Shown piece by piece: positions 1,602 to 58,736 of a DNA stretch of 64,000 nt. The translations under genes and the position numbers were made by a program. Source of the DNA: Candidatus Poribacteria bacterium (lineage in GTDB: Bacteria; Poribacteria; WGA-4E; WGA-3G); contig PYIY01000075.1 in the NCBI GenBank assembly GCA_003635195.1, positions 27,608-91,607 of the forward strand, read 5' to 3'. Within the stretch, counting starts at the first letter, position 1, and each line of letters begins with the position of its first letter. The notes beneath the pieces are model-generated. The model worked only from the letters and a program-made list of their open reading frames with translations. It did not search any database and was not told the origin of the DNA.

Positions 1602-1736
1602 ATTTCCAACCCTACCCTCTTCTCTTTCCTTCAAAGTCCACTCTTTTTTCAGAATTAAGCAACCGTTTTGCCCCTAAATTGCGTCACTATAGGTTGATAT
1701 GTCATGAATCAACTATCGCTTTCTGGGAGGTATCTG

Positions 1737-2930
1737 ATGAAAAACAACGATGTTGCACTTATTCAACGAGTTCTCGCTGGTGATGAAACCGCTTTTGCGG
1801 AACTGGTGAATAAATATCAAAAGCCGGTTCATACACTCGCTTGGCGAAAAATCGGGGATTTTCATATCGCCGAGGACATCACCCAGGAGGTCTTCCTGAA
1901 AGTGTATCAGAGACTCCATATCCTGAAAGATCCGAACCAGTTTTCTGGATGGCTTTATGTGATTACAGCGAACTTATGTGCCACATGGCTCCGCAAAAAA
2001 CGGATACAGACGCAACCGTTGAAGGACACAGAAACAACGATGATACAAGAAGATGCTTATTCTCGACACGTTGTAGAAGAGCGGATGAAAACCACAGCGG
2101 AATCACAACGCGAAGTCGTCAAAAAGCTGCTCGCGAAGCTAAAAGAGAGTGAACGCACAGTGATGGCACTCCACTACCTTGGCGAGATGACGGTTACGGA
2201 AATTAGCCGATTCTTAGGCGTGTCGGCGAGTACCATTAAAAGTCGTTTGAGACGTGCACGAAACCGTTTAAAAGAGGAGGAACCGATGATTAGAGAAGCA
2301 CTCGACCATTTTCAAATCACACCGAATCTTACAGAGAATATCATGTGCGAGATTTCGCGGTTGAAACCGGTTGCACCCTCTAACAGTAAGCCGTTAGTAC
2401 CGTGGGCAATCGGCGTTTCTACGGTAGCCGTCATCTTTTTGATGTTAGGCATAGGCAATCAGTATATGTCGCGTTTCCAAAAGCCGTATAGTTTCGACGC
2501 GCCATCAGAGATGACAGTCGAGTTGATTGAAGCACCCGTTGTGCTAAACCTTGAAGCCAAGCCGGATATTCGGACGCAATTTGGGAGTGTTCGGACACCG
2601 AGCGAGGGAAAGATCTCCAACCAACAGCCTAATGACGTTTCAGCTTCGGCTGCAGAAGCAGAAGCAGATGAGACAGTTAAAAACCACGCGCATTGGAAGT
2701 TGCCCAAAGCCGCAAAAGCGCGCTTCGGAAAAGGTGGGATTACTACAATTCAGTTTTCACCGGATGGCACCGTACTCGCAGTCGGTAGCAATATCGGGGT
2801 ATGGCTGTATGATGTGGAAACGGGTGAGGAGAAATCTTTGTTTGCCGGTGGAATGTGTCAAGCCCTCAGATTTTCGCCGGATGGCCGTTTCCTAACCAGC
2901 TCTTCTGCGGAGACGCTCATCCAATTGTAG
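1737..2930 (+). CDS. ECF-type RNA polymerase sigma-70 factor fused to a TM helix and the first WD40 repeats (N-terminal part of an interrupted fusion gene)
   Basis: GGGAGG at 1725-1730 lies 6 nt before ATG 1737. ECF region 2 and 4 motifs are present (DITQEVFLKVYQRL, ISRFLGVSASTIKSRLRRARNRL). A TM helix follows (LVPWAIGVSTVAVIFLMLGIG), then WD40 units (QFSPDGTVLAVGS..VWLYDVETG, RFSPDGRFLTSS). The ORF stops at TAG 2928-2930, in the same frame as the next ORF. Confidence 0.8.
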   Translation: MKNNDVALIQRVLAGDETAFAELVNKYQKPVHTLAWRKIGDFHIAEDITQEVFLKVYQRLHILKDPNQFSGWLYVITANLCATWLRKKRIQTQPLKDTETTMIQEDAYSRHVVEERMKTTAESQREVVKKLLAKLKESERTVMALHYLGEMTVTEISRFLGVSASTIKSRLRRARNRLKEEEPMIREALDHFQITPNLTENIMCEISRLKPVAPSNSKPLVPWAIGVSTVAVIFLMLGIGNQYMSRFQKPYSFDAPSEMTVELIEAPVVLNLEAKPDIRTQFGSVRTPSEGKISNQQPNDVSASAAEAEADETVKNHAHWKLPKAAKARFGKGGITTIQFSPDGTVLAVGSNIGVWLYDVETGEEKSLFAGGMCQALRFSPDGRFLTSSSAETLIQL

Positions 2931-5610: not shown

Positions 5611-8600
5611 TTAAAGTTCCGCGCTGATTGTCATCTCTAAGCGGTGTTCAGGTTTGCGCTGCTTTGTGGAGAGCAGCCGGTAATTGAGGCGAAACAGTAG
5701 GTCTGTGAATTTTCGTAGCCTATAATCTGCTGTTGTGCGTACTTCGTGACTAATGCCCTCATAAAAAGTGTATTGCGCGAAGGGGATGCCACCGCTACTT
5801 TGACCGTAGCCGAGTTTATAGTTGAAAACGATGCGTCCTTTACCGATAAGCCTGTATGTGATTCGGTTTTCATAAGAGAAGGTGCGCGTTCTGGCTTCAG
5901 GTTCCTCGTCAAGTTGTTCCTCGTCGGTTGTCCGTTTATAGCCGCCAATACCGCTCCACTCCAGTGAGTTGTTCAGATCATATCGGAGGTTCAGTTCAGT
6001 TATCTGTTCAAGTTGACGGAGGTCTGATATAGGTGTAGCGGGAGGATCTCCCATCTTTTCGGTAGGATCGGTTCCCTGCGCGAGGTCCTCAAAATTGAAT
6101 TGGCTATACTTTTCATTTTCTCGACGTTGCTCCCAATTTGCTCTGACAGATAGGCGTTTCGTAGGGTTCACGGAGAAACTGACATCCCAGGTGTTGTGTT
6201 GTCTGTGGCGTTCTTGGTTATTAATTCGCTTGTTGAGCGTCTCTCCCATCCGGAAGTTAATTTCAAAACTGAATGCCGTTGAGGGGACAAATTCGAGTTG
6301 ATGATGTTGGTTCACCCGCCCAAAAAGTGTATCTGGCCCCTGTAGATTTTGGAGTAGATATAGAGAAACAGCGTCCTCTACCTCTTGTTCCTCTGTTAGC
6401 CAAAGTCGTGTTCGTCCTCTGAGTGCACTCAAAAACCACTCTAAACGGCTGTCAGCCATTGGCTCTCGGCTATCAGTAACAGGAGGTTTCTGGTTAACAG
6501 AAAACCCTCTTTGCTGATTGCTGACTGCTGACTGCTGATTGCTATCTTGCTGACTGCTGACTACTGAGGATTGACTGCTATTTCGTGTTGGACGCAAACT
6601 GTCGGGTTTCAGCATTGACTCACGTTGCTGCTGTTGCCGCGCTCTTGCACGCCGTGCGAAGTACTGACGCGGTTGAAAACGGATACGGAATTCCGCATCT
6701 ACCGCTGTTGTTGGCTTATCACCGACATTTTGGTAGATTTTGATGTAGGTGCCTTCCTCGGGATCTTCTACATAGTGCAGATCGTCCAATTTCACGTAAT
6801 AGCCTTCGCCAGGTTGAAGGAGAAGTCCGGTGTGTGGATGAATGTTGGTATAGATTTCGTGGCGTTGGCTTGTCAATTTTTTATCTAACTCGTAGGTGAG
6901 TTCTATGTCAATTGCCCGACTGAGTGGTGTCAATTGAAGGTTGATATCGGCGAGTTGCGTCGTCGTATCTGCGCCGATATCCGTGTGTGCCTTCAGCATT
7001 CGGCGAGCAAGGTTCGCACTCAGATTCACGCCGCCGCTGAGAAAAGATTTGTGTTGTGAAAAGAGACCGACTTTCCATGTTCGCGCTGTAGTGCTTCGCT
7101 GCCAATCGGATAGACCGATGGGTTGGTTGTCCACAGTGAGCAACGGCTCTTTCGCATAAGCCTCCTCAAGTTCGTAGCTGGTATTGACGGAGACCCAACT
7201 GAAATCAACGAGATTAATACGTCCAATCGCACGGTTCCGCTTTCGGTTGAGTGTCGCATTGCGTGCCTCGTTTGATTCCAATCTACCCAAAGTCCCAATA
7301 ATTCTGAACGGTCCGATCGGATAGGACAGGTTGCCCTCCTGTCGCGACTTTTGCTGCGATTCTGTCTGTGTTGAATCTTCACTCTCGACCCGTGAACTGC
7401 TCCGATAATCATCCCAACGGAAATTCGGCAACTTCCTTAGGAGCTGCGCGCCTTTAGAGGATGCCTTTTCTGACGCTATAGCTTCCTTCGGTCGTCCCGT
7501 TGTAAACCTGCTTTCTCGTGTGCGGGTAGCGATTACATTTCCACTGCCTGAACGCTGATTGAAGTTTACGCCCCAGTTGAAATTATCACGGATCGTTGCG
7601 TTGGTAGGAGTGGTTCTTTCAAATTGTTGGAAACCATCTGGTGAATCAGATCCTTCTGACTGACTGTTCTCACTGCGAAGCAGGCGTGCCGGCTGACGGC
7701 TGTTTTCCTCGCTCCTACCGACTCCGGCATTAACCGCGAACCAATCCGTCGGTATCACTCGGATGTCAAAGTTTGCGGTTCTTTCATCTCGGGCAATTTG
7801 TGAGTGTCGTGCAGTATCAAAGAGAAACGCATCATCAAAACCCTCTTTGGCGTATTGCGTTTCATAACGGGAACGGGAACGGTTACCACTTGATGCGCCG
7901 ACAGGTAGAAAATCGGCATCCATTGCGCGTATGTCAAAGTTTGTGTTCAATTTAGGTCGGAATTTCTCTGTCCATGTAGCGAAGTCCCAGTCCGCATAGC
8001 CGATCAGTTTCCACGCCTGACTCACCTCTTTACGGTCTACGGTGGAATAGGTGTTTTTATCAAGATTGCTGTAGGCGAGTTCACCTTCAATCCACGCTTT
8101 TTCGGTGATATTCACGCGACTTTCTACACCCCATACTGTATGTTTTTGCGGTGCCGTGAGGAGTGATCTGCCGTCTTCTTCAGGATCAAGGAGATTTTGA
8201 CGCAGTGCCTCCAGATCCGCGTCGCTGAGTTGGATTAAAGCCTGTTCAGGTTGGTTCAGGTCCGCCTCAACGGCATAAGAGGCACCGAGACTTATCCAGT
8301 CTCCGGGTAGTGTGAAGACGCTGCTGAGTCCGTAAAGATTCTGTTGATAGGCCCGTTCTTCAGGGATATATTCAAAGTCAATCCGAATTGTGTCGTTGCT
8401 TGTTATCAGGTGTTTGCTGTTGAATTCGACGATCGGATCCCCATATTCTCGGATGACGTAATCGTTGTTCTCACCGCGCCGCATCCGCTCGCCATTCAAC
8501 CAGACGATTTCACTCCCTGCTTTCACGATGACGTATTGCCCATCAACCGTAATCCGGTATTCGCTCCGTCCTTCTTCTCCACGAAGGACTAAACTTGTAG

Positions 8601-9486
8601 ACTGTCCTTTCGGGATAGCACTCGGAATGAGGTGAAATTTCGCCCACTTGAAATCGCCTTCGACTTGTACGCCTTCGAGCGCACGTGGGAAAAAGATAAA
8701 TTCCGAGGCACCGAGTGATCCCTCAAAGTCGCCTAATGTGCCTCTCATGTTCGGATGCGTGATACGAACCAATTTCTGATCAATGTCTTGGATATTCTCG
8801 GTTGTGCCTTCGGGTTGAATTGGTAAATCTTGGTCGGACAGCAGTGCAAGGACACTGATATTCTCGGAGACTTTACCCTCTACATTGACCCGGAGTTCCT
8901 GGTTCAGTGTCACGCCGCGCCCGCTGCCGACTGAGATACCGGATGTTTGACTTCCGGACACTTCTAATTGGCTATCGGGAGAATAGTTGTCAGTTGTCAG
9001 TTGTCGGTTGTCAGTTAAAAATCGGTTTGTCTCATCAGACTTCTCTTTCACTGATGACTCCTGCGCTGATGGAAACCGAAGGCTATCGGGGTTTTGCTCA
9101 CCGTAAAGGTCGCGTTTATAGACCTCTTTTATTGCGAAAGGCAGCGTGCGATAGGTTATCTTTAATCTATAGGGATCGGTAATGGAATCTTGCTTTACTA
9201 TAGTAATCTTTCCCGGATAGAAATCAATTTGATAGTCCACATTTCGGACAAGGGTTTTTCCGTTCGCCGCTACCAACTGTTCACTGTCAGGGAGAATCGG
9301 CGGGTACTTTACTGTAAATTCCAGTTCACTATCTTTCAGTTCAAAGGATTCTGTTTTCTGGAGAACGGAAAAGGTGGGAAGTTTGAGGACTTTAGTCTTG
9401 TCGTCAGCGGATTCTTGTGCCGGACTTTCGGGACAAGGTAGCAGGCACAAACAGAAGGAAACGAAAAAAAAGAGTCGGATAGGCAT
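5611..9486 (-). CDS. Very large secreted, outer-membrane beta-barrel-like protein (1291 aa), family unknown
   Basis: Signal peptide MPIRLFFFVSFCLCLLPCPESPAQ. The C-terminal two thirds are long, aromatic-rich and have an alternating pattern. Two low-complexity segments are encoded by family A repeat DNA. Confidence 0.6.
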   Translation of the reverse strand: MPIRLFFFVSFCLCLLPCPESPAQESADDKTKVLKLPTFSVLQKTESFELKDSELEFTVKYPPILPDSEQLVAANGKTLVRNVDYQIDFYPGKITIVKQDSITDPYRLKITYRTLPFAIKEVYKRDLYGEQNPDSLRFPSAQESSVKEKSDETNRFLTDNRQLTTDNYSPDSQLEVSGSQTSGISVGSGRGVTLNQELRVNVEGKVSENISVLALLSDQDLPIQPEGTTENIQDIDQKLVRITHPNMRGTLGDFEGSLGASEFIFFPRALEGVQVEGDFKWAKFHLIPSAIPKGQSTSLVLRGEEGRSEYRITVDGQYVIVKAGSEIVWLNGERMRRGENNDYVIREYGDPIVEFNSKHLITSNDTIRIDFEYIPEERAYQQNLYGLSSVFTLPGDWISLGASYAVEADLNQPEQALIQLSDADLEALRQNLLDPEEDGRSLLTAPQKHTVWGVESRVNITEKAWIEGELAYSNLDKNTYSTVDRKEVSQAWKLIGYADWDFATWTEKFRPKLNTNFDIRAMDADFLPVGASSGNRSRSRYETQYAKEGFDDAFLFDTARHSQIARDERTANFDIRVIPTDWFAVNAGVGRSEENSRQPARLLRSENSQSEGSDSPDGFQQFERTTPTNATIRDNFNWGVNFNQRSGSGNVIATRTRESRFTTGRPKEAIASEKASSKGAQLLRKLPNFRWDDYRSSSRVESEDSTQTESQQKSRQEGNLSYPIGPFRIIGTLGRLESNEARNATLNRKRNRAIGRINLVDFSWVSVNTSYELEEAYAKEPLLTVDNQPIGLSDWQRSTTARTWKVGLFSQHKSFLSGGVNLSANLARRMLKAHTDIGADTTTQLADINLQLTPLSRAIDIELTYELDKKLTSQRHEIYTNIHPHTGLLLQPGEGYYVKLDDLHYVEDPEEGTYIKIYQNVGDKPTTAVDAEFRIRFQPRQYFARRARARQQQQRESMLKPDSLRPTRNSSQSSVVSSQQDSNQQSAVSNQQRGFSVNQKPPVTDSREPMADSRLEWFLSALRGRTRLWLTEEQEVEDAVSLYLLQNLQGPDTLFGRVNQHHQLEFVPSTAFSFEINFRMGETLNKRINNQERHRQHNTWDVSFSVNPTKRLSVRANWEQRRENEKYSQFNFEDLAQGTDPTEKMGDPPATPISDLRQLEQITELNLRYDLNNSLEWSGIGGYKRTTDEEQLDEEPEARTRTFSYENRITYRLIGKGRIVFNYKLGYGQSSGGIPFAQYTFYEGISHEVRTTADYRLRKFTDLLFRLNYRLLSTKQRKPEHRLEMTISAEL
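6492..6583. repeat. Family A element, half copy (A1), inside the 1291-aa CDS
   Basis: aaaaccctcttt is followed by the 7-nt units gctgatt gctgact gctgact gctgatt gctat. This parallels aaacctcttt aactgat aactgat aactgat aactattt at 16317-16353. Confidence 0.65.
8983..9025. repeat. Family A arm (A2) inside the 1291-aa CDS
   Basis: The sequence atagttgtcagttgtcagttgtcggttgtcagttaaaaatcgg is the same arm seen at 22315 and 58652. Confidence 0.7.
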
Positions 9487-14870: not shown

Positions 14871-14961
14871 AGCGTTTTTTAAAGTTCCTCGCGGTTTGAT
14901 GAGGCAATTATTTAAAAATCCATTTTTATTTGTAAATTGTAGGTGACGCAGTGTCTATCCG

Positions 14962-15684
14962 CTACGCCGAAAAAAATTTTAAAAATAGCCCTAACACGTT
15001 AGGGAGCTCCTCGCGCGGGATATAACAATCGACGCTTATATCAGGTTCTATACCTGTTTTTAGTGTTGGTGCCTGTGTGATGAGTTGTTCTTCTGGGGCA
15101 TGTGGTGCGGGTTGTAGATTTGGTGGTGTCGATTTTTTGATGGCTACTGTCCCTTCCGCGATCACCAATTCGCCGATTGGGAGATGCGTGGCGAGTGGAT
15201 AAACCTCCGTTTCAGTCATAACTGTGATATGCGGTAGTGAAGCCTCGGCGAGTTGTTCCATTTGCATTGTCAAATAGGGGGTTTCCTTCAAAGTATCTTC
15301 ATATCCCTCCGGTTGGCAGGCGACGACGGTGATCAGTGGAATTCGTTTCTGTAAGGCGTTTTCAATAGCTGCCAGCAGCAAGGACACATCAATTTCTGTG
15401 GGAATCACATCTATATCAGCAATAAAGAGACAGGCGGGATACTCAGAGATCGTCCCTTCGGCGGTGAAGCCAGCAGCCTTGGTTGATCTGATTTTTGCAG
15501 CTGATGGATCGTCCAACAAGTATTCGAGCCGTTTCTCCGCAAGTAAAGGAAACAGCGCGCCACAGTGTGAACAAGTATAGAGGTTGCGTTCGAGTTCACC
15601 TCTGAAAACAACTTCCTTGCACTGTGTGCATTTATACCATAAATTAAGGCTCTGTTCCGTGTCAGTAGAAATGCTTGTTTCCAT
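14962..15684 (-). CDS. AccD-like protein: carboxyltransferase-beta-type N-terminal zinc ribbon with a degenerate, shortened CT domain
   Basis: WYKCTQCKEVVFRGELERNLYTCSHCGALFPLLAEKRLEYLLD matches the AccD Cys4 ribbon as I remember it from E. coli. The rest aligns only loosely and lacks the FMGGSMG-type glycine motif. The ORF-track start at 15750 runs through repeat DNA, so ATG 15684 is preferred. Confidence 0.55.
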   Translation of the reverse strand: METSISTDTEQSLNLWYKCTQCKEVVFRGELERNLYTCSHCGALFPLLAEKRLEYLLDDPSAAKIRSTKAAGFTAEGTISEYPACLFIADIDVIPTEIDVSLLLAAIENALQKRIPLITVVACQPEGYEDTLKETPYLTMQMEQLAEASLPHITVMTETEVYPLATHLPIGELVIAEGTVAIKKSTPPNLQPAPHAPEEQLITQAPTLKTGIEPDISVDCYIPREELPNVLGLFLKFFSA

Positions 15685-15694
15685 ATTTTTTGGG

Positions 15695-15827
15695 TAGTTT
15701 TTAGTTATCGGTTGTTGGTTATCAGTTAAGAGGATGATCTGATTCATCAAGTCTTTCTGTTAACTGAAAGCTGAAAGATTTTTCATGCCTCGCAGTGAGA
15801 GAAAATCGGACTGAAAACTGATAACTA
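15695..15827. repeat. Family A element(s) (A5)
   Basis: Pattern tagtttttagttatcggttgttggttatcagttaagagg...ctgttaactgaaagctgaaag, followed by tttttcatgcctcgcagtgagagaaaatcggactgaaaactgataacta. Confidence 0.8.
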
Positions 15828-15833
15828 TTAAAC

Positions 15834-16193
15834 CTATAAGAAATGACCGATGGCTTCTGCTTCTGTATTGTAGCAGTCAAAAATCGTCATCAGTTTAGCC
15901 ATAACAATAAGACTTCTGATATTGCCGCCCAGATTCAGCAGCACCACGCGTCCCTCATTCCGGCGGATAGTCGTATAAGCAGCGACGAGTATCCCTAAGC
16001 CGGTGCTATCCATCATCTGGACGCGCTCCATGTTGAAAATTAAATTAAGATTTTCTCCGTGTTCTGCCTCGCTACTGAGCGTTTGAATCTGTTGATCAAT
16101 GATGGATTTAAGTGCCAAGGCATCTGCCCCAATAATTTTTCCCTCAATATCTAAGATTGTAATACTGCCTTTGTTTCGAACATTGACTTGCAT
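15834..16193 (-). CDS. STAS-domain anti-sigma-factor antagonist (RsbV/SpoIIAA-like)
   Basis: 119 aa with the motifs ITILDIEGKI and MDSTGLGILVAAY and the typical length. Confidence 0.85.
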   Translation of the reverse strand: MQVNVRNKGSITILDIEGKIIGADALALKSIIDQQIQTLSSEAEHGENLNLIFNMERVQMMDSTGLGILVAAYTTIRRNEGRVVLLNLGGNIRSLIVMAKLMTIFDCYNTEAEAIGHFL

Positions 16194-16208
16194 GATAATT
16201 CCTTAGCG

Positions 16209-16350
16209 TAGTTGTCAGTTTGCCTTGCAGTGAGAGTCGTCAGTGGTCAGTTAAGAGAGGTCTTGGGGTGTCAAGCTCTCTGGTGGCATCTATAAGTTGA
16301 TGGAATACTACAGCAAACCTCTTTAACTGATAACTGATAACTGATAACTA
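16209..16350. repeat. Family A element (A6), full copy
   Basis: The left arm is tagttgtcagtt, followed by the box tgccttgcagtgagag. The inner stem is cagttaagagaggtctt...aaacctctttaactg, and the right arm is aactgataactgataactgataacta. Confidence 0.85.
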
Positions 16351-16351
16351 T

Positions 16352-17047
16352 TTATGTCTTATATTTAACCATTTTGATGATAGTGCCGTTGGCTTCGTAA
16401 GTAACAGAGTCCATACAGGCTTCCATCAAGAATAAACCTCTCCCACTGCTTTTGAGCAAATTCTCTGGGTCAAGTGGGTCCGCAACTTCTTTGCGTGTGA
16501 ATCCCTCGCCTTCATCCTCAACGATAATTGTGAGTTTATCTTCATCGAGAAGGAACTGCATAATCGCCTTTTTGCTTGGATTCTCTTTATTTCCGTGTTT
16601 GATCGCGTTTGTACCTGCCTCAATGGCAGCAAGGTTAATCTGCTCTTGGATCTCCTCAGCGAAATCCGAATCTTTCAAGACCTCAGTAACGACGACATCA
16701 AGGAGGTAAACATGTCGCATTGAGCTTGGGAGAGAAAGCGTAATAACTTGTTCAATTTCGGGCGCTTTGTGCGTGGATGCCTCACCCTCGTCGATAGTGT
16801 TGATGGTGAGTCCATCTTCATTAAGAATTAATTGAAAAATTGTTGATTTGCCCGGATCCTCTCTATCGCCGTGTTCTTCGATCGCGTTTGTACCCGCTTC
16901 AATGGCAGCAAGGTTAATCCGCTCTTGGGTGCCTTCATCAAAGTCCGCCTCTTTTAGGATTTCAGTGACAACAGCCCTGAGTAGATAAACATGTCGCATT
17001 GAGCTTGGGAGAGAAAGCGTAATAACCTGTTCAGTTCTCTCGCCCAC
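16352..17047 (-). CDS. RsbW/SpoIIAB-like anti-sigma serine kinase (HATPase_c) with an internal 93-aa tandem duplication
   Basis: It has a GTG start. EQVITLSLPSSMRHVYLL..INLAAIEAGTNAI occurs twice, 279 nt apart. Only the second copy continues into DEGEGF and SGRGLFLM (G boxes). Confidence 0.8.
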   Translation of the reverse strand: MGERTEQVITLSLPSSMRHVYLLRAVVTEILKEADFDEGTQERINLAAIEAGTNAIEEHGDREDPGKSTIFQLILNEDGLTINTIDEGEASTHKAPEIEQVITLSLPSSMRHVYLLDVVVTEVLKDSDFAEEIQEQINLAAIEAGTNAIKHGNKENPSKKAIMQFLLDEDKLTIIVEDEGEGFTRKEVADPLDPENLLKSSGRGLFLMEACMDSVTYEANGTIIKMVKYKT

Positions 17048-17076
17048 GTTTGAAGCTCCTTCTCTATGATCAAGAA

Positions 17077-17164
17077 GTTACCAGTAACCAGTGGCCAGTT
17101 ACCAGAAAGAGACTTTGGAACTATCCAAAACCTCTGAAAACTGGAAACTGGAAACTGGAAACTG
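17077..17164. repeat. Family A element (A7)
   Basis: The left arm is gttaccagtaaccagtggccagttaccag. The core is aaagagactttggaactatccaaaacctct, and the right arm is gaaaactggaaactggaaactggaaactg. Confidence 0.8.
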
Positions 17165-17215
17165 TTCTTTCATTGTTTGTTTTGCGGGCAAGCGATGTTG
17201 CTTGCCCGTTGTGAT

Positions 17216-18460
17216 TTAAACGTCGCGTTTTATAACAATTAAAGCCCTATCGTCACGGGTTTGTGTGCTTCCACTAAAGCGTGCTAAATCGCTAACAACG
17301 GCTTTGCATAACGCTGATGCTGACAGTGCTGCGTTTTTGGAAAGGCAGGCAGCAAGCCTATCACTGCCGTAAAATATATCGGTCAGTATAGCATCTTCGT
17401 GTATGTCATCTTGTTCTGAACGCATGGACTCGCTGTGATTTCCATCGGAAACCGGAGCGTCACCAGCCTCCGTTTCAGTGATACCATCTGTATAGAACAC
17501 GAGAACATCGCCGGGTGCCAGGAGACAGGTGCCAGTCGTGAAAGTTGCTTCCTCAAATGCCCCTATCAACATACCACCTACTTTTAAAACCTCTATACTT
17601 CGAGCATTGTTCCAATGAAGTGGATAGCAGTGCCCTCCATTTGCGTATGTAAAGGTTGAAGTCTCGGTGTCTAATATGCCGTAAATCATCGTTGCGAACA
17701 GGTCTGCCTCAGTATCACGCGCCACTAAGTCATTAATCCGTTTCAGGCTTGCAGCGGGCGTGTCTTCCTCATGACAGAGTAAGCGGAGTGCTGTCCGAAT
17801 CATCACCATCAGTAGTGCTGCCGGGATACCATTGCCCTTTACATCACCGAGAACAATCCCAATCTGTGTTTCGCTGAGTGGGATGAAATCGTAGAAATCG
17901 CCAGAAACAGATGTAGAACTTTGCAGCAGTGTTGCGATGTCAAACCCGTCGAGACGCGGAGCCTGTTCAGGTAGCAATTTTTTTTGAATTGCAGCGGCGG
18001 CTTGTAGATGCCCTGCGAGTTGTTCGAGTCCTTCCTCGCTAAACCCTTCCCCCATCGCGCGTATAAGTGGATTGATATATTTAATCGGTCGAGTTCTGCC
18101 GAGGACGGCTTCAACGCGGGCAGTTACCTCGCGTAAGTCAAACGGTTTGGTGATGTAATCGTCCGCCCCAGTATCCAAGCCACGGACTTTATCCTCCGTC
18201 TGTCCGCGCGCTGTAACTAAAATGACAGGAACACTTTTTGTTTCCTCTATATCTTTGAGTTCTTCAATGACCTGGAAACCGTCTTTATGTGGCATCATTA
18301 CATCGAGAAGGATAAGATCGGGTGGGTCTGTGCATGCGCTTTGCACTGCGCTCTCGCCATCGCTTGCAGTGCGTACATTGTACCCCTCCGGTTCTAAGTT
18401 CATCTTTAACAGTTCAAGTATATCCAGATCGTCGTCAACCACTAAAATCGTTTCAGCCAT
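17216..18460 (-). CDS. Response-regulator receiver fused to a PP2C/SpoIIE phosphatase (RsbU-like)
   Basis: The REC domain shows ILVVDDDLDILE and LILLDVMMPHKDG. The PP2C domain shows SGDFYDFIP and FYTDGITE. ATG 18460 overlaps the kinase stop as ATGGCTGA. The ORF-track start at 18553 lies inside the kinase gene. Confidence 0.85.
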   Translation of the reverse strand: MAETILVVDDDLDILELLKMNLEPEGYNVRTASDGESAVQSACTDPPDLILLDVMMPHKDGFQVIEELKDIEETKSVPVILVTARGQTEDKVRGLDTGADDYITKPFDLREVTARVEAVLGRTRPIKYINPLIRAMGEGFSEEGLEQLAGHLQAAAAIQKKLLPEQAPRLDGFDIATLLQSSTSVSGDFYDFIPLSETQIGIVLGDVKGNGIPAALLMVMIRTALRLLCHEEDTPAASLKRINDLVARDTEADLFATMIYGILDTETSTFTYANGGHCYPLHWNNARSIEVLKVGGMLIGAFEEATFTTGTCLLAPGDVLVFYTDGITETEAGDAPVSDGNHSESMRSEQDDIHEDAILTDIFYGSDRLAACLSKNAALSASALCKAVVSDLARFSGSTQTRDDRALIVIKRDV

Positions 18461-20867
18461 TTGTCCCCTTTTCCAACGGAATAAAAAACTGGAAGTTGGA
18501 TCCGTGTCCATTATCCCCGGCATCAACCCATAATTTTCCACCGTGCGCTTCAACGATTCCAGAAGCGATTGAAAGTCCTAAACCGGTCCCACCCTGTTGC
18601 CGTGTCTGTACACTTCCGAGTTGTCTGAATTTATCGAAGACTTTTTCTCGCTCCTCAGCGGCGATACCGGGGCCTGTGTCGATAACTTCGATGTGGAAGC
18701 CGTCGCTTTCGCTCCCGTTCTGTGAAGATTTTGATATTCTGACCGTCACCTTTCCGTTATCAGGTGTGAATTTAATGGCGTTTCCGATGAGATTAATAAA
18801 AATCTGTCCAATCCGGTCTGTATCGCCAATCATCACGGGTAGGTTCGCCGGTGCCTCCAAGAGCAGAGATATTGTCTTTTCATCTGCTTGTGGACGCAGT
18901 TCTTCGATTCTCCGTTTTGCTATCCAGTCTATCTGTATCTGTTCCTGCTTCATCTCAATCCGTCCGGCTTCAATTCGAGAGATGTCAAGCAGATCGTTGA
19001 TAAGTAGAGCGAGTCGTTTTGATTGGCGGAGGGCGCGACTTAAACTTTCATATTGTTTTTGATTAATTTCGCCGGTCTTTCCATCAAGTATGAGCGAAAT
19101 GAAACCGATGATGGATGTCAGTGGTGTCCGCAATTCATGGGATACGAGAGAGACGAATTCCGATTTCATCTGCTCTATTTCGTGTTCATTGGTAATATCA
19201 TCAAAAACATAAACTGTGCCCGCGATGTTGTTGCTCTCATCAGGAAATTGGCTTGCGATAATGCGTAGCACCCGAGTGCCGTCCCCGTTTGGCTGTTGCT
19301 CATTGACATCCACTTCTGCAATCATCGTTTGATGCTGTGTCACCTCACGCTGCGAAGAAGACAGGATTTTCATGCCAACGGTTCTTGTTCTCGTGTCTGA
19401 GGTCTGGGCTTCCTCGCTTGGTTCTAATACCTTTGTCCAGCGGATTGTCTCGGTTTCAGTATCAAGTGTGATAAAGTTTTCATAATCACCGGTTTCTCCA
19501 AGATTAAGGAGTTGTTCAGCTACAGGATTAACGTAGAGCACACGCCCTGAAGGTTCAACAACAATCAGTCCTTCACCGAGGTTATCAACGATGGCAGTAA
19601 GTTTTCTCTCCTCTTGCGTTAGTTTGTCAACTGCGGTTTTCAGATTCCGGCGCATTTCATTGAATTCTTCAGCGAGGACCCCGACTTCATCATCGCTATC
19701 AACGACGATTTCGCTGTCAAATTCGCCCTGTCCAATGCTACGCGCCCCTTCTGCTACTTTCAATATCGGTGTTGCTATCCGTTGTGCTGCCCACCATGCA
19801 ATAAGTACAACGATGCAACTTGACACAATGGTAACATAAAAAATATAGTTGTTTAATTTTTCAACCCCTGCATAAGCAAAGGAAGTCGGTCGAGAAATAA
19901 AAACGATCCAGTTGCTGAAGTTTTGTCGCTCTTTCCACTTTGCAGGTGAGGGTCGGGTTCGCGCCCAACCATAAACCCGCGGTTCGTTGAAACTATCTGT
20001 TTCCCCTTCGGCTTCATAATAGTAGTATTTTCCGTGTTTGCCTTTTTTTGCCTCAATAATCGCTTCTTCTGCTGCGTTGTTCATCTCTATGTCGGTATCT
20101 ACTCGATACCCGCTGTCTGGTGAAGCGGCAATGATTTTACCAGATTCGTTTGTTAAAAGCGTCTGCGTTTCTTCCAACTCGAGGCTGGATTCGACTATAT
20201 TTTTCAGTTCAGGAAGTAAAATCACAATTCTCAGTACCCCGACTGTATTTTTTTCACCTGGCGCAGCGGGGACTTTAGAAGCCGTACGTATAGGGAGTGC
20301 GATTGGGAGCAGATGTACTCTCCGTGATGCGTCATAGCGGATGTCTTCAGCGAACGGGTAACCGACACCGTGATTATAGGCTTTCTGCCACCAGACTGTG
20401 TTGTTCACTCGACGCGGTGCCCCTCTTTTTGTATAGTATTCGAGTTCCTGATTGTTTGATCGGAGCACTTGTCCGGATGCATTGGTAATAGTTACCTCAG
20501 TTTTGTCTCCCGCGTATGTCTCAAGTAGACGGATGCTATCCACGAGTTGTGTCCAAACATCGAAAAATACGGCTACCTCTCCGTTAGCAGTGTTAGAATA
20601 CACGACTGCTGCTCGGATGTTTGGGAGTTCAGCTTCAATCTTTGCGATTTTCTCGGAGATGGCATTGTCCGCACGTGCGAGTTTCTCTTGTGCAAGGAGC
20701 ACATGGTTTTCACCAACGGTGTCTTTTAACGCATTTTCACCTAACACCTTGATCGCCAATGAAATAGCGAACAACGGCATGAGTGCTACCAACAAAAAAA
20801 GCACGACCTGTTGACCACGTAGTCCAACCTTAAACCGAAAACGTTTTGTACGATTTTTGTCTTTCAT
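18453..20867 (-). CDS. Sensor histidine kinase (2 TM, large periplasmic sensor, HAMP, PAS, HisKA, HATPase_c)
   Basis: The H box is SHELRTPLTSIIGF, the HAMP region has DEVGVLAEEFNEMRRNL, and the G box is GTGLGLSIASGIVEAHGG. There are two hydrophobic helices. Confidence 0.9.
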   Translation of the reverse strand: MKDKNRTKRFRFKVGLRGQQVVLFLLVALMPLFAISLAIKVLGENALKDTVGENHVLLAQEKLARADNAISEKIAKIEAELPNIRAAVVYSNTANGEVAVFFDVWTQLVDSIRLLETYAGDKTEVTITNASGQVLRSNNQELEYYTKRGAPRRVNNTVWWQKAYNHGVGYPFAEDIRYDASRRVHLLPIALPIRTASKVPAAPGEKNTVGVLRIVILLPELKNIVESSLELEETQTLLTNESGKIIAASPDSGYRVDTDIEMNNAAEEAIIEAKKGKHGKYYYYEAEGETDSFNEPRVYGWARTRPSPAKWKERQNFSNWIVFISRPTSFAYAGVEKLNNYIFYVTIVSSCIVVLIAWWAAQRIATPILKVAEGARSIGQGEFDSEIVVDSDDEVGVLAEEFNEMRRNLKTAVDKLTQEERKLTAIVDNLGEGLIVVEPSGRVLYVNPVAEQLLNLGETGDYENFITLDTETETIRWTKVLEPSEEAQTSDTRTRTVGMKILSSSQREVTQHQTMIAEVDVNEQQPNGDGTRVLRIIASQFPDESNNIAGTVYVFDDITNEHEIEQMKSEFVSLVSHELRTPLTSIIGFISLILDGKTGEINQKQYESLSRALRQSKRLALLINDLLDISRIEAGRIEMKQEQIQIDWIAKRRIEELRPQADEKTISLLLEAPANLPVMIGDTDRIGQIFINLIGNAIKFTPDNGKVTVRISKSSQNGSESDGFHIEVIDTGPGIAAEEREKVFDKFRQLGSVQTRQQGGTGLGLSIASGIVEAHGGKLWVDAGDNGHGSNFQFFIPLEKGTNG

Positions 20868-20907
20868 GTTTCCAAGAATAGTGCCGGACAGCGCGCTTTC
20901 TGGGCGA

Positions 20908-21024
20908 ATAGTCGTCAGCCATCAGCTGTCAGCAAAGACGCAAGCTTTACAGAACACCTCTTTTCTTTACTGATAGCCGAAAGGTTTTTCGCAGAAAAAC
21001 CGCCCTGACAACCGACTGCTATTT
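20908..21024. repeat. Family A element (A8, AAAGACGCAAGC subtype)
   Basis: Pattern atagtcgtcagccatcagctgtcagc aaagacgcaagctttacagaac..ccgaaaggtttttcgcagaaaaaccgccctgacaaccgactgctattt. It is collinear with 9503-9632. Confidence 0.8.
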
Positions 21025-21035
21025 CCGTTTTTCCC

Positions 21036-21383
21036 TTACATGAAAGCGTCGCGCGCGGACTCCTCCGTATCATATATCTCAATAACGGTTGCGAGGTGTG
21101 TTACCTCCAAAACTTCTTGGACTGCTTTCTGAGGGTTGAGCAAAACGAGTTTGCCTCCCGATTCCTGACAGGACTTCAAGGTCGTCACTATTGCGCCCAA
21201 CGCACTACTATCGATTAGCGGGACGTTCGTTAAGTCAACGACTAATTTATCGTGTCCTGTTTGAAGCTGCAGCTCCATTTCCTTACGAAATGCATCTGAG
21301 GCATTTCCAAGAATCTTGCCCTCGATATGAAGCGTGGAGATGTTTTCCTCTCCGATTGTTGTATCAAGATTCATAGGACTCAC
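21036..21383 (-). CDS. STAS-domain anti-sigma-factor antagonist (second copy)
   Basis: 115 aa with the motifs LHIEGKILGNAS and IDSSALGAIVTTL. Confidence 0.85.
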   Translation of the reverse strand: MSPMNLDTTIGEENISTLHIEGKILGNASDAFRKEMELQLQTGHDKLVVDLTNVPLIDSSALGAIVTTLKSCQESGGKLVLLNPQKAVQEVLEVTHLATVIEIYDTEESARDAFM

Positions 21384-22314: not shown

Positions 22315-22414
22315 TAGTTGTCAGTTATCAGTTGTCAGTTTGCCTTGCAGTGAGAGTTAAGAGACCTCTTGTGGCAGGTAAATATGTTGTTACTGCCACA
22401 GCAGACTTCTTAAC
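22315..22414. repeat. Family A element (A9)
   Basis: Pattern tagttgtcagttatcagttgtcagtt tgccttgcagtgagag ttaagagacctctt gtggcag..ctgccac ..cttcttaac. It starts 1 nt after the rsmG start codon. Confidence 0.85.
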
Positions 22415-26013: not shown

Positions 26014-26110
26014 GCCATCAGTCATCAGCCATCAGTCATCAGTAAAAGAGGTATTTGGTTATGCGAAAACCTGTTTGCTGATGGTCTCCGACGGCTGACA
26101 GCCGACAGCC
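26014..26110. repeat. Family A-like element (A11)
   Basis: Pattern gccatcagtcatcagccatcagtcatcagt aaaagaggtatttgg...aaaacctgtttgctgatgg..gctgacagccgacagcc. Confidence 0.65.
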
Positions 26111-53764: not shown

Positions 53765-55447
53765 CTATAAGGAAATCGTTTCTGGTGGGTTGTCGCGTGT
53801 AATGAGGAGGCGTCGCTGCCATTCGGTATCATCCTGTGCCGGAAAATCGGCGCGATAGTGTGCACCGCGACTCTCTGTCCGAACAAGAGCAGATTGTGTT
53901 ATCATCAAAGCGACGTTGAGCATATTAACTGTTTCAATCGTTGCGACATCTGCGACTTCTGGACGCGTTAGCACGTTCCCTAAACTTTCCATTAAGTCTT
54001 GCAATTCGGCGAAGGTTTCTTGTAAACCTTCGCCGTTTCGTTCGATGCTAACGTTCTCCCAGAGTGCCTCTCGAATGACCTTTTTGATCGGTTCTATAGA
54101 ATAGTTTTCGGTTTTCAGTTTTCGGTTTTCAGTTAAAGCGTCTCTCGTGGCAGTCCCAGACCCCTCTTGTAACTGACTACTGATAACCGATGGCTGATAA
54201 CTCTTTGCGAATGTTGCAGCATTTGTGCCAGCGCGGGCCCCATAGACGAGGCATTCAAGCAGCGAGTTGCTTGCTAAACGATTCGCCCCGTGGACCCCTG
54301 TACATGCCACTTCTCCACAAGCATAAAGCCCTTTGAGGTTGGTTTGTGTATCTGTATTTGTGCGGATGCCGCCCATCATGAAGTGTGCGCCAGGACGGAC
54401 GGGGATTAAGTCCACGTTAATATTGAGACCATAGTGTTTTGTGGTCTCGGAGATGGTCGGAAATCGTTCAAGGATGAAGTCTTCGGATTTATGGGTAATA
54501 TCGAGGAAAACGCAGGGGAATTCGGTCAAGTCCATCTCGTTTTGAATCGCACGGCTCACGACATCCCGTGGGGCAAGTTCACCTTTCTCGTGGTATTTCT
54601 CCATAAAGCGTTCACCACGAATGCTCAAAAGTTTGCCGCCTTCGCCTCTAACGGCTTCTGAGATCAAGAAATTAGGTGCCCCATCCAAGAAGAGCGTTGT
54701 TGGGTGGAACTGGACGAATTCCATATCTATCATTTCGCATCCGGCGCGCCAGGCCGCAGCGAATCCGTCGCCGGTTGCTACTTTTGGATTAGAAGTACAT
54801 GGGTAAATCCGCCCAAGCCCGCCGGTCGCGAGAATTGTGGCTTTGGCGCGAAGACAGACGACTTGTTCCTCTACAATTGCCGTGACCCCGTAGCATGTGG
54901 GCGTATTTTCTCTTTCCAAATTGACATCCGCGTCAGTCAGTAAATCAATGGCGAAAGTGTTTTGCAGGACGTGAATCCGTTCCGTATTTAGCACGCGCTG
55001 GATAAGGACATCTGTCGTTTCACGCCCTGTTGCGTCCCCTTTGTGTACAATTCGACGGCGGCTGTGGGCAGCTTCTCGTGTAAAGCGGGGCAGCGTTCCT
55101 TCCCAATCAAAGTTCGCGCCCCAGTCTAACAGTTCTGCAACGCGTGGAATGCCTTCAGATACCATCATCTCAACCGCTTCCACATTACAAAGACCGGCAC
55201 CCGCGACACAGGTATCCTTTATGTGCAAGGCAATTGTGTCATCAAGGTTCATAGCAACAGCGATTCCACCTTGGGCGTAGTGGGTATTGCTCTCTGTCAA
55301 TGTAGTTTTGGTAATTAAGGTTACATCGGCGTGTTCACTCGCAGCGAGGGCAGCGCGCAACCCAGCAGCACCACTCCCGATAATGAGGACATCGGTGTCC
55401 CAAGTGAAATGCCGTTCTGGATTCATCGCAGATATTGGATTTTCCAT
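53765..55447 (-). CDS. nadB: L-aspartate oxidase carrying an in-frame repeat-derived insertion
   Basis: It has the FAD motif DVLIIGSGAAGLRAAL, the motifs HYAQGGIA and RGEGG, and a C-terminal ESRGAHYR. Confidence 0.9.
   Translation of the reverse strand: MENPISAMNPERHFTWDTDVLIIGSGAAGLRAALAASEHADVTLITKTTLTESNTHYAQGGIAVAMNLDDTIALHIKDTCVAGAGLCNVEAVEMMVSEGIPRVAELLDWGANFDWEGTLPRFTREAAHSRRRIVHKGDATGRETTDVLIQRVLNTERIHVLQNTFAIDLLTDADVNLERENTPTCYGVTAIVEEQVVCLRAKATILATGGLGRIYPCTSNPKVATGDGFAAAWRAGCEMIDMEFVQFHPTTLFLDGAPNFLISEAVRGEGGKLLSIRGERFMEKYHEKGELAPRDVVSRAIQNEMDLTEFPCVFLDITHKSEDFILERFPTISETTKHYGLNINVDLIPVRPGAHFMMGGIRTNTDTQTNLKGLYACGEVACTGVHGANRLASNSLLECLVYGARAGTNAATFAKSYQPSVISSQLQEGSGTATRDALTENRKLKTENYSIEPIKKVIREALWENVSIERNGEGLQETFAELQDLMESLGNVLTRPEVADVATIETVNMLNVALMITQSALVRTESRGAHYRADFPAQDDTEWQRRLLITRDNPPETISL
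54102..54202. repeat. Family A element (A13), complete copy inside the nadB CDS
   Basis: Pattern tagttttcggttttcagttttcggttttcagtt aaagcgtctctcgtggcagtcccagacccctctt gtaactgactactgataaccgatggctgataact. Confidence 0.8.
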
Positions 55448-58651: not shown

Positions 58652-58736
58652 TAGTTGTCAGTTATCAGTTGTCAGTTATCGGTTAAGAGATTTTCGTTTA
58701 AGCACAGTTTCCTCTTGTAACTGATAATTGATAACC
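58652..58736. repeat. Family A element (A14)
   Basis: Pattern tagttgtcagttatcagttgtcagttatcggttaagagattttcg..tttcctcttgtaactgataattgataacc. It starts 5 nt after the valS start codon. Confidence 0.85.

Follow-up and report, generated by a model that had tools for sequence, protein, structure and literature searches.

The DNA analysed here, referred to throughout as the window, is a 64,000-nucleotide (nt) stretch of contig PYIY01000075.1 from a metagenome-assembled genome (MAG) of Candidatus Poribacteria (6.45 Mb, 93 % complete), and the region under study within it, positions 14,962-21,383, carries a partner-switching cassette together with a gene for a protein resembling AccD. A sequence-only reading of this region had proposed the minus-strand order STAS protein, histidine kinase, REC-PP2C phosphatase, RsbW-like serine kinase, STAS protein and AccD-like protein, and this order was borne out when domains were assigned to the proteins of the window using Pfam and NCBIfam profile searches (Table 1). 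The domain content supports the RsbU/V/W-type logic with two-component input that had been suggested, and both proposed STAS antagonists, termed here STAS-A and STAS-B, match PF01740. The AccD-like protein is referred to as pseudo-AccD. On balance we lean towards regarding the cassette as the local, two-component-driven form of a sigma-less partner-switching system (PSS) present throughout Poribacteria, in which pseudo-AccD is the probable effector.

The likely start of STAS-A is the ATG at 21374, within an open reading frame (ORF) listed from 21383, and its phosphorylatable Ser lies within the motif LIDSSALG; the equivalent Ser of STAS-B lies within MMDSTGLG. The dCache-like domain of the sensor kinase is periplasmic and is followed by HAMP, PAS, HisKA and HATPase_c domains. 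The true start of the REC-PP2C gene was placed at the ATG at 18460, the listed ORF start (TTG 18553) being too far upstream, and the reported overlap of this start with the kinase stop was read in the sequence as 8 nt, ATGGCTGA. The phosphatase domain, a PP2C of the SpoIIE type fused to the REC domain, is the putative phosphatase of phosphorylated STAS (STAS~P). Orthologues of the sensor kinase keep their position beside REC-PP2C in 14 of the 20 deep loci described below, and phosphotransfer between the two proteins is predicted. The start of pseudo-AccD is the ATG at 15684, not the TTG at 15750, which gives a protein of 240 residues (aa), the length also found in about 150 relatives. Upstream of the cassette lie rsmG and mnmG, and downstream lie galK and a gene for a ROK kinase. 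As these two continue on the same strand, pseudo-AccD, which had been described as the last cistron, is the last of the signalling set but not of the run of genes. A scan for promoters and terminators returned counts equal to those obtained with shuffled sequence.

Table 1. Features of the partner-switching cassette (positions are those of the window)
Feature	Position	Strand	Profile matches or repeat unit
STAS-A, single-domain STAS protein of the anti-sigma-antagonist type	21036..21383	-	Pfam STAS 2e-22, TIGR00377 1e-20
Membrane sensor histidine kinase, 804 aa	18453..20867	-	Pfam dCache_1 (weak), HAMP, PAS, HisKA, HATPase_c
REC-PP2C (SpoIIE-family) phosphatase, RsbY-like response regulator, 414 aa	17216..18460	-	Response_reg 3e-31, SpoIIE 3e-48
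RsbW/SpoIIAB-like GHKL serine kinase, 231 aa	16352..17047	-	HATPase_c_2 1e-37, RsbW NF003144 3e-28 (below cut-off)
STAS-B, second single-domain STAS protein	15834..16193	-	Pfam STAS 3e-17
Pseudo-AccD, 240 aa	14962..15684	-	PF17848 Zn_ribbon_ACC 2.8e-07, sole Pfam match
Tandem heptamer arrays in gaps	17048-17215, 16194-16351, 15685-15833		such as (CAGTTTC)n, (CAGTTAT)n and (CTGGTAA)n

Conservation of the neighbourhood was assessed by fetching approximately 20 kb around the AccD-like gene from 20 genomes of 8 families and mapping the proteins of the window onto these loci; the family and genus labels (f1-f8) and the G and L numbers used below are anonymous codes. Pseudo-AccD was found directly downstream of RsbW on the same strand, whether or not a STAS gene intervenes, in 20/20 loci representing all 8 families, and in 29/29 further loci of f1, the family to which the window belongs, RsbW, STAS-B and pseudo-AccD follow one another in this order. 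The question attached to the original proposal, namely whether the AccD-like gene always follows the STAS gene in related genomes, can be answered for the RsbW/STAS pair as a whole, behind which the gene stands in 49/49 genomes of 8 families and on further metagenome contigs. The identical RsbW/STAS/AccD-like arrangement occurs on a Tara Oceans contig that is 59 % identical. The only sampled genome that is devoid of pseudo-AccD, G012, is also devoid of an orthologue of the cassette RsbW.

The flanks and the composition of the cassette vary. Upstream, rsmG, parA-parB or minCDE is found depending on the lineage, and downstream the galK-ROK pair is confined to f1, with ROK alone in f4 and other genes in f2, f3 and f5-f8. 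STAS-A opens the cassette in f1-f4 and f6, the sensor kinase is absent in f5, and in f7 and f8 both the kinase and the adjacent PP2C are absent. STAS-B sits between the RsbW-like and AccD-like genes in most families; it is missing from one f2 genome, and neither G001 nor G053 has it. In G001 (L046) its position is empty and RsbW directly precedes pseudo-AccD; in G053 (f4) the slot is occupied by a gene for a 371-aa FAD-dependent oxidoreductase resembling DAO and sarcosine oxidase (L051, 10291-11406). In f5 the stop codon of the STAS gene overlaps the start of pseudo-AccD, and on L054 the STAS and pseudo-AccD ORFs abut in frame.

In the deep-branching families the order mnmG-rsmG-parA-parB-STAS-RsbW-pseudo-AccD was found on three metagenome and three MAG contigs. 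On the basal metagenome contigs the gap from RsbW to pseudo-AccD is only 5-50 nt (n=3), and on 2/3 of them there is a 4-nt overlap between STAS and RsbW. The conserved core is one STAS phosphoprotein, the RsbW-like kinase and pseudo-AccD, onto which the sponge-associated families, among them that of the window, appear to have gained the histidine kinase and REC-PP2C input and a second STAS protein. By analogy with the classical operons, pseudo-AccD is in the slot held there by sigB or sigF. A pattern scan of GTDB genomes using the basal alignment (A6) returned three poribacterial pseudo-AccDs, and the 77 other proteins, which come from other phyla, were genuine AccDs whose motifs are intact (as checked by eye); none of these has RsbW or STAS neighbours.

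The relationship of pseudo-AccD to the carboxyltransferase subunit extends over its full length. A profile of the pseudo-AccD family matched E. coli AccD across residues 10-274 (2f9y_B, E 6e-44; 8uxz_D, E 5e-44), and a model of the basal pseudo-AccD of contig L062 superposed on the AccDs of S. aureus and E. coli with TMt values of 0.60-0.69, with Foldseek assigning a probability of 1.0 and TMt values of 0.65-0.67 to its matches with 2f9i_B and 2f9y_B. In 31 family members the four cysteines of the zinc ribbon (C19, C22, C38 and C41) do not vary, nor do residues of the structural core, and no part of the protein is better conserved than the ribbon. With AccD (TIGR00515; 2f9y_B, 2f9i_B) pseudo-AccD thereby shares homology, fold, Cys4 ribbon and core. 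It differs in that the four Gly-rich catalytic and oxyanion motifs (FxGGSMG, SGGARMQE, TDPTxGG and GFAGPR; alignment A1) are replaced in every pseudo-AccD, whereas genuine poribacterial AccDs retain all four. It also scores far under the TIGR00515 cut-off (55.8 bits vs 317.45, over the N-terminal 63 residues only), and PF01039 has no match in pseudo-AccD or in the rest of its own assembly.

Among 61 poribacterial genomes, sampled from a larger total, pseudo-AccD is present in 60, covering 13/13 genera of the phylum. As it has no internal stop codons in these 60 genomes and the ratio of nonsynonymous to synonymous substitution rates (dN/dS) within the genus is 0.07-0.14, it is under strong purifying selection and is not a decaying gene. 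Genuine AccD and AccA are encoded at other loci in 60/60 relatives, so that pseudo-AccD is an extra AccD paralogue; from its sequence it is predicted to be catalytically dead. In a phylogenetic tree the genuine AccDs group together in a single clade with good support; the AccD-like proteins fall outside this clade, and their branching tracks family structure. That pseudo-AccD might be the sole, divergent but functional AccD of its genome was considered, given that its assembly has no PF01039 match, and rejected, since an AccD with intact motifs is found elsewhere in each of these relatives. The assembly containing the window itself has no genuine accD, and its accA is severed at the end of a 4-kb contig (C42:3698-4089). 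Because accA is cut by a contig end and every sampled relative has both genes, the assembly is taken to be incomplete at the acc genes and the missing accD is probably an assembly gap.

The components of the switch look competent by sequence, and their activities are predicted. The Ser expected to be phosphorylated is kept in both STAS proteins and in 28/28 orthologues, where it aligns with Ser58 of SpoIIAA; this answers the call for a conserved-Ser check made with the original proposal. In 23 orthologues of the RsbW-like kinase the N (EAGTNAIKHGN), G1 (DEGEGF) and G2 (SGRGLFLM) boxes are present, and the model of an orthologue superposed on B. subtilis RsbW (6m36) and SpoIIAB (1th8) with TMt values of 0.85-0.96. 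As its scores fall below the RsbW and SpoIIAB equivalog cut-offs, the cassette kinase is classed by profile as RsbW-like and not as an RsbW orthologue. In the window the first half of this kinase is partially duplicated in tandem, and the N-terminal duplicate of 93 aa, which precedes the complete N/G1/G2 domain, has an N box changed to NAIEEHG and neither a G1 nor a G2 box. The duplicated form (229-235 aa) is numerous among homologues and typical of the genus, on which grounds an assembly artefact or a peculiarity of this one genome was rejected as the origin of the 231-aa protein; deeper lineages have single-domain kinases of 135-159 aa. The duplicate has the appearance of an added domain that became fixed and may be functional.

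A search for sigma factors confirmed, for the window and by Pfam, that no sigma gene lies in or beside the cassette, as had been claimed for the SigB and SigF types. In none of 25 related loci was an RpoD- or SigB-type gene found within approximately 10 kb of the cassette, and a SigB-like target immediately outside the cassette in relatives, which had been named in advance as the case contrary to a sigma-less system, was encountered in none of them; the only sigma-like gene in these intervals is a distant ECF-like one. In f1 a large ECF-sigma-like protein of about 410-450 aa (Sigma70_ECF, r2, r4) is consistently encoded 8-12 kb from the cassette (window 1698-2930, plus strand; L002 19128-20474; L060 18824-19900). 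Its gene is the nearest sigma-like one, is non-adjacent and is not of a type regulated by RsbW.

Across the whole assembly, at 93 % completeness, no SigB/F/G-type sigma was detected. Only three sigma factors with region 3 are encoded, all RpoD-like: NCBIfam places the shortest with the RpoD/RpoS-like sigmas, its score being below the SigB/F/G cut-off, and the other two are long and RpoD-like by sequence. The assembly has three RsbW paralogues, and none of the three sigmas is encoded in the vicinity of any of these. A canonical SigB-like target is not evident. The same assembly contains 16 STAS genes, 3 RsbW-like genes and 9 genes for SpoIIE-type PP2C phosphatases, and these numbers, set against three RpoD-like sigmas, point to an extensive network of partner switches in which obvious sigma targets are few. 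On another contig of this genome (C142:44314-46893) four STAS-only genes stand in tandem on one strand.

A repeat element had also been described in every intergenic gap of the cassette, and this could be upheld in part. The element is clear between the PP2C and RsbW genes, between RsbW and STAS-B and between STAS-B and pseudo-AccD, and is degenerate between STAS-A and the histidine kinase; none is present between rsmG and STAS-A or between pseudo-AccD and galK. Tandem Repeats Finder reported arrays at 16324-16349, 17076-17105 and 17134-17164. The heptamer arrays belong to a genome-wide repeat family and are not specific to the cassette. Paired arrays of the CAGTNNN type occupy many intergenic gaps, and some lie inside ORFs; further examples in the window are those at 6512-6567, 8985-9016, 22316-22340, 26016-26043, 54103-54134 and 58653-58685. 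The family is reminiscent of the short tandemly repeated repetitive (STRR) heptamers of cyanobacteria.

Two candidates for the output of the cassette had been put forward in the sequence-only reading, a distant sigma factor and, more speculatively, the AccD-like protein. The latter is favoured here over the former by its linkage and because basal lineages reduce the module to STAS, RsbW and the AccD-like protein. A functional tie between pseudo-AccD and the STAS/RsbW switch is considered quite likely, and that pseudo-AccD is the effector of the module is held with moderate confidence. In the scheme that we propose, the sensor kinase would detect an extracytoplasmic ligand and control phosphorylation of the REC domain, which, as is known for this family of proteins, would gate the PP2C domain and with it the dephosphorylation of STAS~P. 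Unphosphorylated STAS would then capture the RsbW-like kinase, and the latter, judging from the residues and ATP boxes present, would re-phosphorylate the conserved Ser. In place of a sigma factor, pseudo-AccD would carry the output, gene order and conservation suggesting that it is most likely held or released by RsbW or STAS. Once freed, pseudo-AccD may act on carboxyltransferase, for instance as an inactive beta subunit together with AccA, or by means of its zinc ribbon. A more specific version, which we regard as unlikely, is that the sigma factor has been replaced by a dead AccD that RsbW or STAS sequesters until the input flips and releases it, whereupon it caps AccA as a beta subunit without catalytic activity, or binds acc mRNA through its zinc ribbon, and so throttles the synthesis of malonyl-CoA and fatty acids at the post-translational level.

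Complex formation was explored using AlphaFold2 on natural gene fusions obtained by in-frame read-through, in which stop codons were read as Gly, alignments were block-diagonal and the predicted TM-score (pTM) was the only score of docking. The fusion of RsbW, linker and pseudo-AccD (412 aa) was modelled with a predicted local distance difference test (pLDDT) score of 85 and a pTM of 0.60, which is about the value estimated for two undocked domains. The positive control, a fusion of RsbW, linker and STAS-B (277 aa), was itself weak, reaching a pLDDT of 88 and a pTM of 0.66 where approximately 0.5 was estimated for the undocked state. As the RsbW-STAS control reached only this value, the test has little power in either direction and neither supports nor refutes direct binding of RsbW to pseudo-AccD.

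A doubtful but serious alternative is that the RsbW-like kinase controls a distant RpoD-like sigma of group 1 or 2, as in the case of Chlamydia RsbW and sigma-66, and that pseudo-AccD is a syntenic bystander. Much of what weighs against an effector role for pseudo-AccD belongs here. Chlamydia, Bordetella, Vibrio fischeri and Shewanella provide well-known examples of PSS loci that have no sigma gene beside them, and the case of Chlamydia shows that the target of an RsbW-type kinase can be a sigma of the housekeeping type from another locus (PMC8256260). The present genome holds three RpoD-like sigmas as well as three RsbW-like kinases, and the fusion of RsbW with pseudo-AccD gave no confident docking, with the same reservation as to its control. 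Moreover, poribacterial gene order is conservative in general and mnmG-rsmG also adjoins the cassette in many families, so that part of the adjacency could be inherited synteny rather than functional coupling; in the window, 149 nt containing a repeat element separate STAS-B from pseudo-AccD. A mere bystander, however, fits poorly with a gene that stays behind RsbW/STAS across 8 families despite changes in the flanks and in the make-up of the cassette, that is placed exactly in the sigma position by the tight three-gene unit of the basal lineages, and that is absent together with RsbW in G012, and the assembly offers no sigma of the SigB/F/G type for the kinase to control.

It is also conceivable, if improbable, that STAS and not RsbW reads pseudo-AccD, such that the phosphorylation state of STAS-B, or of the single basal STAS protein, decides binding. 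Parallels exist in Pseudomonas HsbA, for which FlgM and the cyclase HsbD are alternating partners, and in the STAS domain of E. coli YchM, which binds acyl carrier protein. STAS-B is the gene immediately upstream of pseudo-AccD in most families, the overlap in f5 and the in-frame abutment on L054 join the two still more closely, and the pTM of the RsbW fusion is compatible with such a readout. Set against this, the immediate upstream neighbour in the basal lineages and in G001 (L046) is RsbW, and both G001 and G053 do without STAS-B. A last alternative, which is very improbable, connects pseudo-AccD with sugar metabolism: it would be part of the galK-ROK sugar-kinase unit, where it might, for example, regulate how galactose or glucose is phosphorylated, and would be unrelated to partner switching. 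This reading draws on f1, in which the pseudo-AccD stop overlaps or nears the galK start: the two overlap by 4 nt on L002 (10741-10744), galK overlaps the ROK gene in relatives, and in the window the gap is 91 nt (14871-14961) without a repeat. Given the overlap in relatives, pseudo-AccD of f1 may be co-transcribed or co-translated with the two sugar kinases, which is a further point to be held against a dedicated effector of the switch. The galK-ROK pair follows only in f1, with ROK alone in f4, whereas the linkage to RsbW/STAS persists in f2, f3 and f5-f8.

With pseudo-AccD as the probable effector, the poribacterial module can be compared with characterised systems. The operons spoIIAA-spoIIAB-sigF and rsbV-rsbW-sigB represent the classical three-gene layout. 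Basal Poribacteria resemble these B. subtilis operons in the succession of a STAS gene, a GHKL kinase gene and a third gene, tightly packed, and differ from them in that the third gene encodes a pseudo-carboxyltransferase instead of a group-3 sigma. Two-component-driven partner switching has been described for RsbK-RsbY-RsbV-RsbW-SigB of Bacillus cereus, which shares with the cassette a clustered histidine kinase and REC-PP2C acting on a STAS antagonist and RsbW pair (PMC9912610). In B. cereus, however, sigB is part of the cluster and there is one antagonist, whereas the cassette described here has no sigma gene, two STAS proteins, a kinase with periplasmic Cache, HAMP and PAS domains, and a presumed dead AccD in the sigma slot.

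The cassette also resembles a group of PSS that are sigma-less or have an output other than a sigma factor, in that STAS, an RsbW-like kinase and PP2C are encoded without an adjacent sigma gene. To this group belong Pseudomonas HsbR/HsbA and the Synechocystis IcfG cluster. Further members are Chlamydia RsbU/V1/V2/W, Bordetella BtrU/V/W, Vibrio fischeri SypE/SypA and Shewanella CrsR/CrsA (PMC8256260). Two STAS proteins, as in the window, are also found in Chlamydia and Synechocystis; none of the systems named is known to have a conserved operon partner in the form of a pseudoenzyme derived from AccD. A conceptual likeness may be drawn to the plant BADC proteins, inactive paralogues of BCCP (the biotin carboxyl carrier protein) that inhibit heteromeric acetyl-CoA carboxylase (ACCase) (10.1101/634550, PMC12706156), since in both cases a dead paralogue of an ACCase subunit would be kept as a putative regulator. 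BADC is a plant protein that mimics the biotin carrier and has no tie to partner switching, whereas pseudo-AccD mimics the carboxyltransferase and its contact with ACCase is conjectural. A full-text literature search returned no paper joining partner switching with acetyl-CoA carboxylase and none on anti-sigma-type systems in Poribacteria. As PSS that are sigma-less or have non-sigma outputs are already known (PMC8256260), the cassette does not represent a system of a new kind; the literature searched contained no case of a pseudo-carboxyltransferase as a conserved PSS operon partner.

Few signalling devices of bacteria are as widespread as partner-switching modules, and outside the Firmicutes a known output is the exception among them. 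Here, comparative genomics singles out one candidate output, a pseudoenzyme derived from the enzyme of the committed step of fatty-acid synthesis, in an arrangement that is kept across the phylum and points to an output of a type not yet described for partner switching. If this assignment is true, the RsbW/STAS switch would have been rewired from transcription to the direct control of a metabolic complex, and pseudo-AccD would be a bacterial case of a regulator derived from an ACCase subunit. On the more specific and unlikely version given above, the module would be the first PSS with a metabolic enzyme complex as its direct output and pseudo-AccD the first bacterial analogue of BADC. Poribacteria are uncultivated symbionts of sponges, and a pathway leading from a periplasmic Cache sensor to lipid metabolism would bear on their adaptation to the host.

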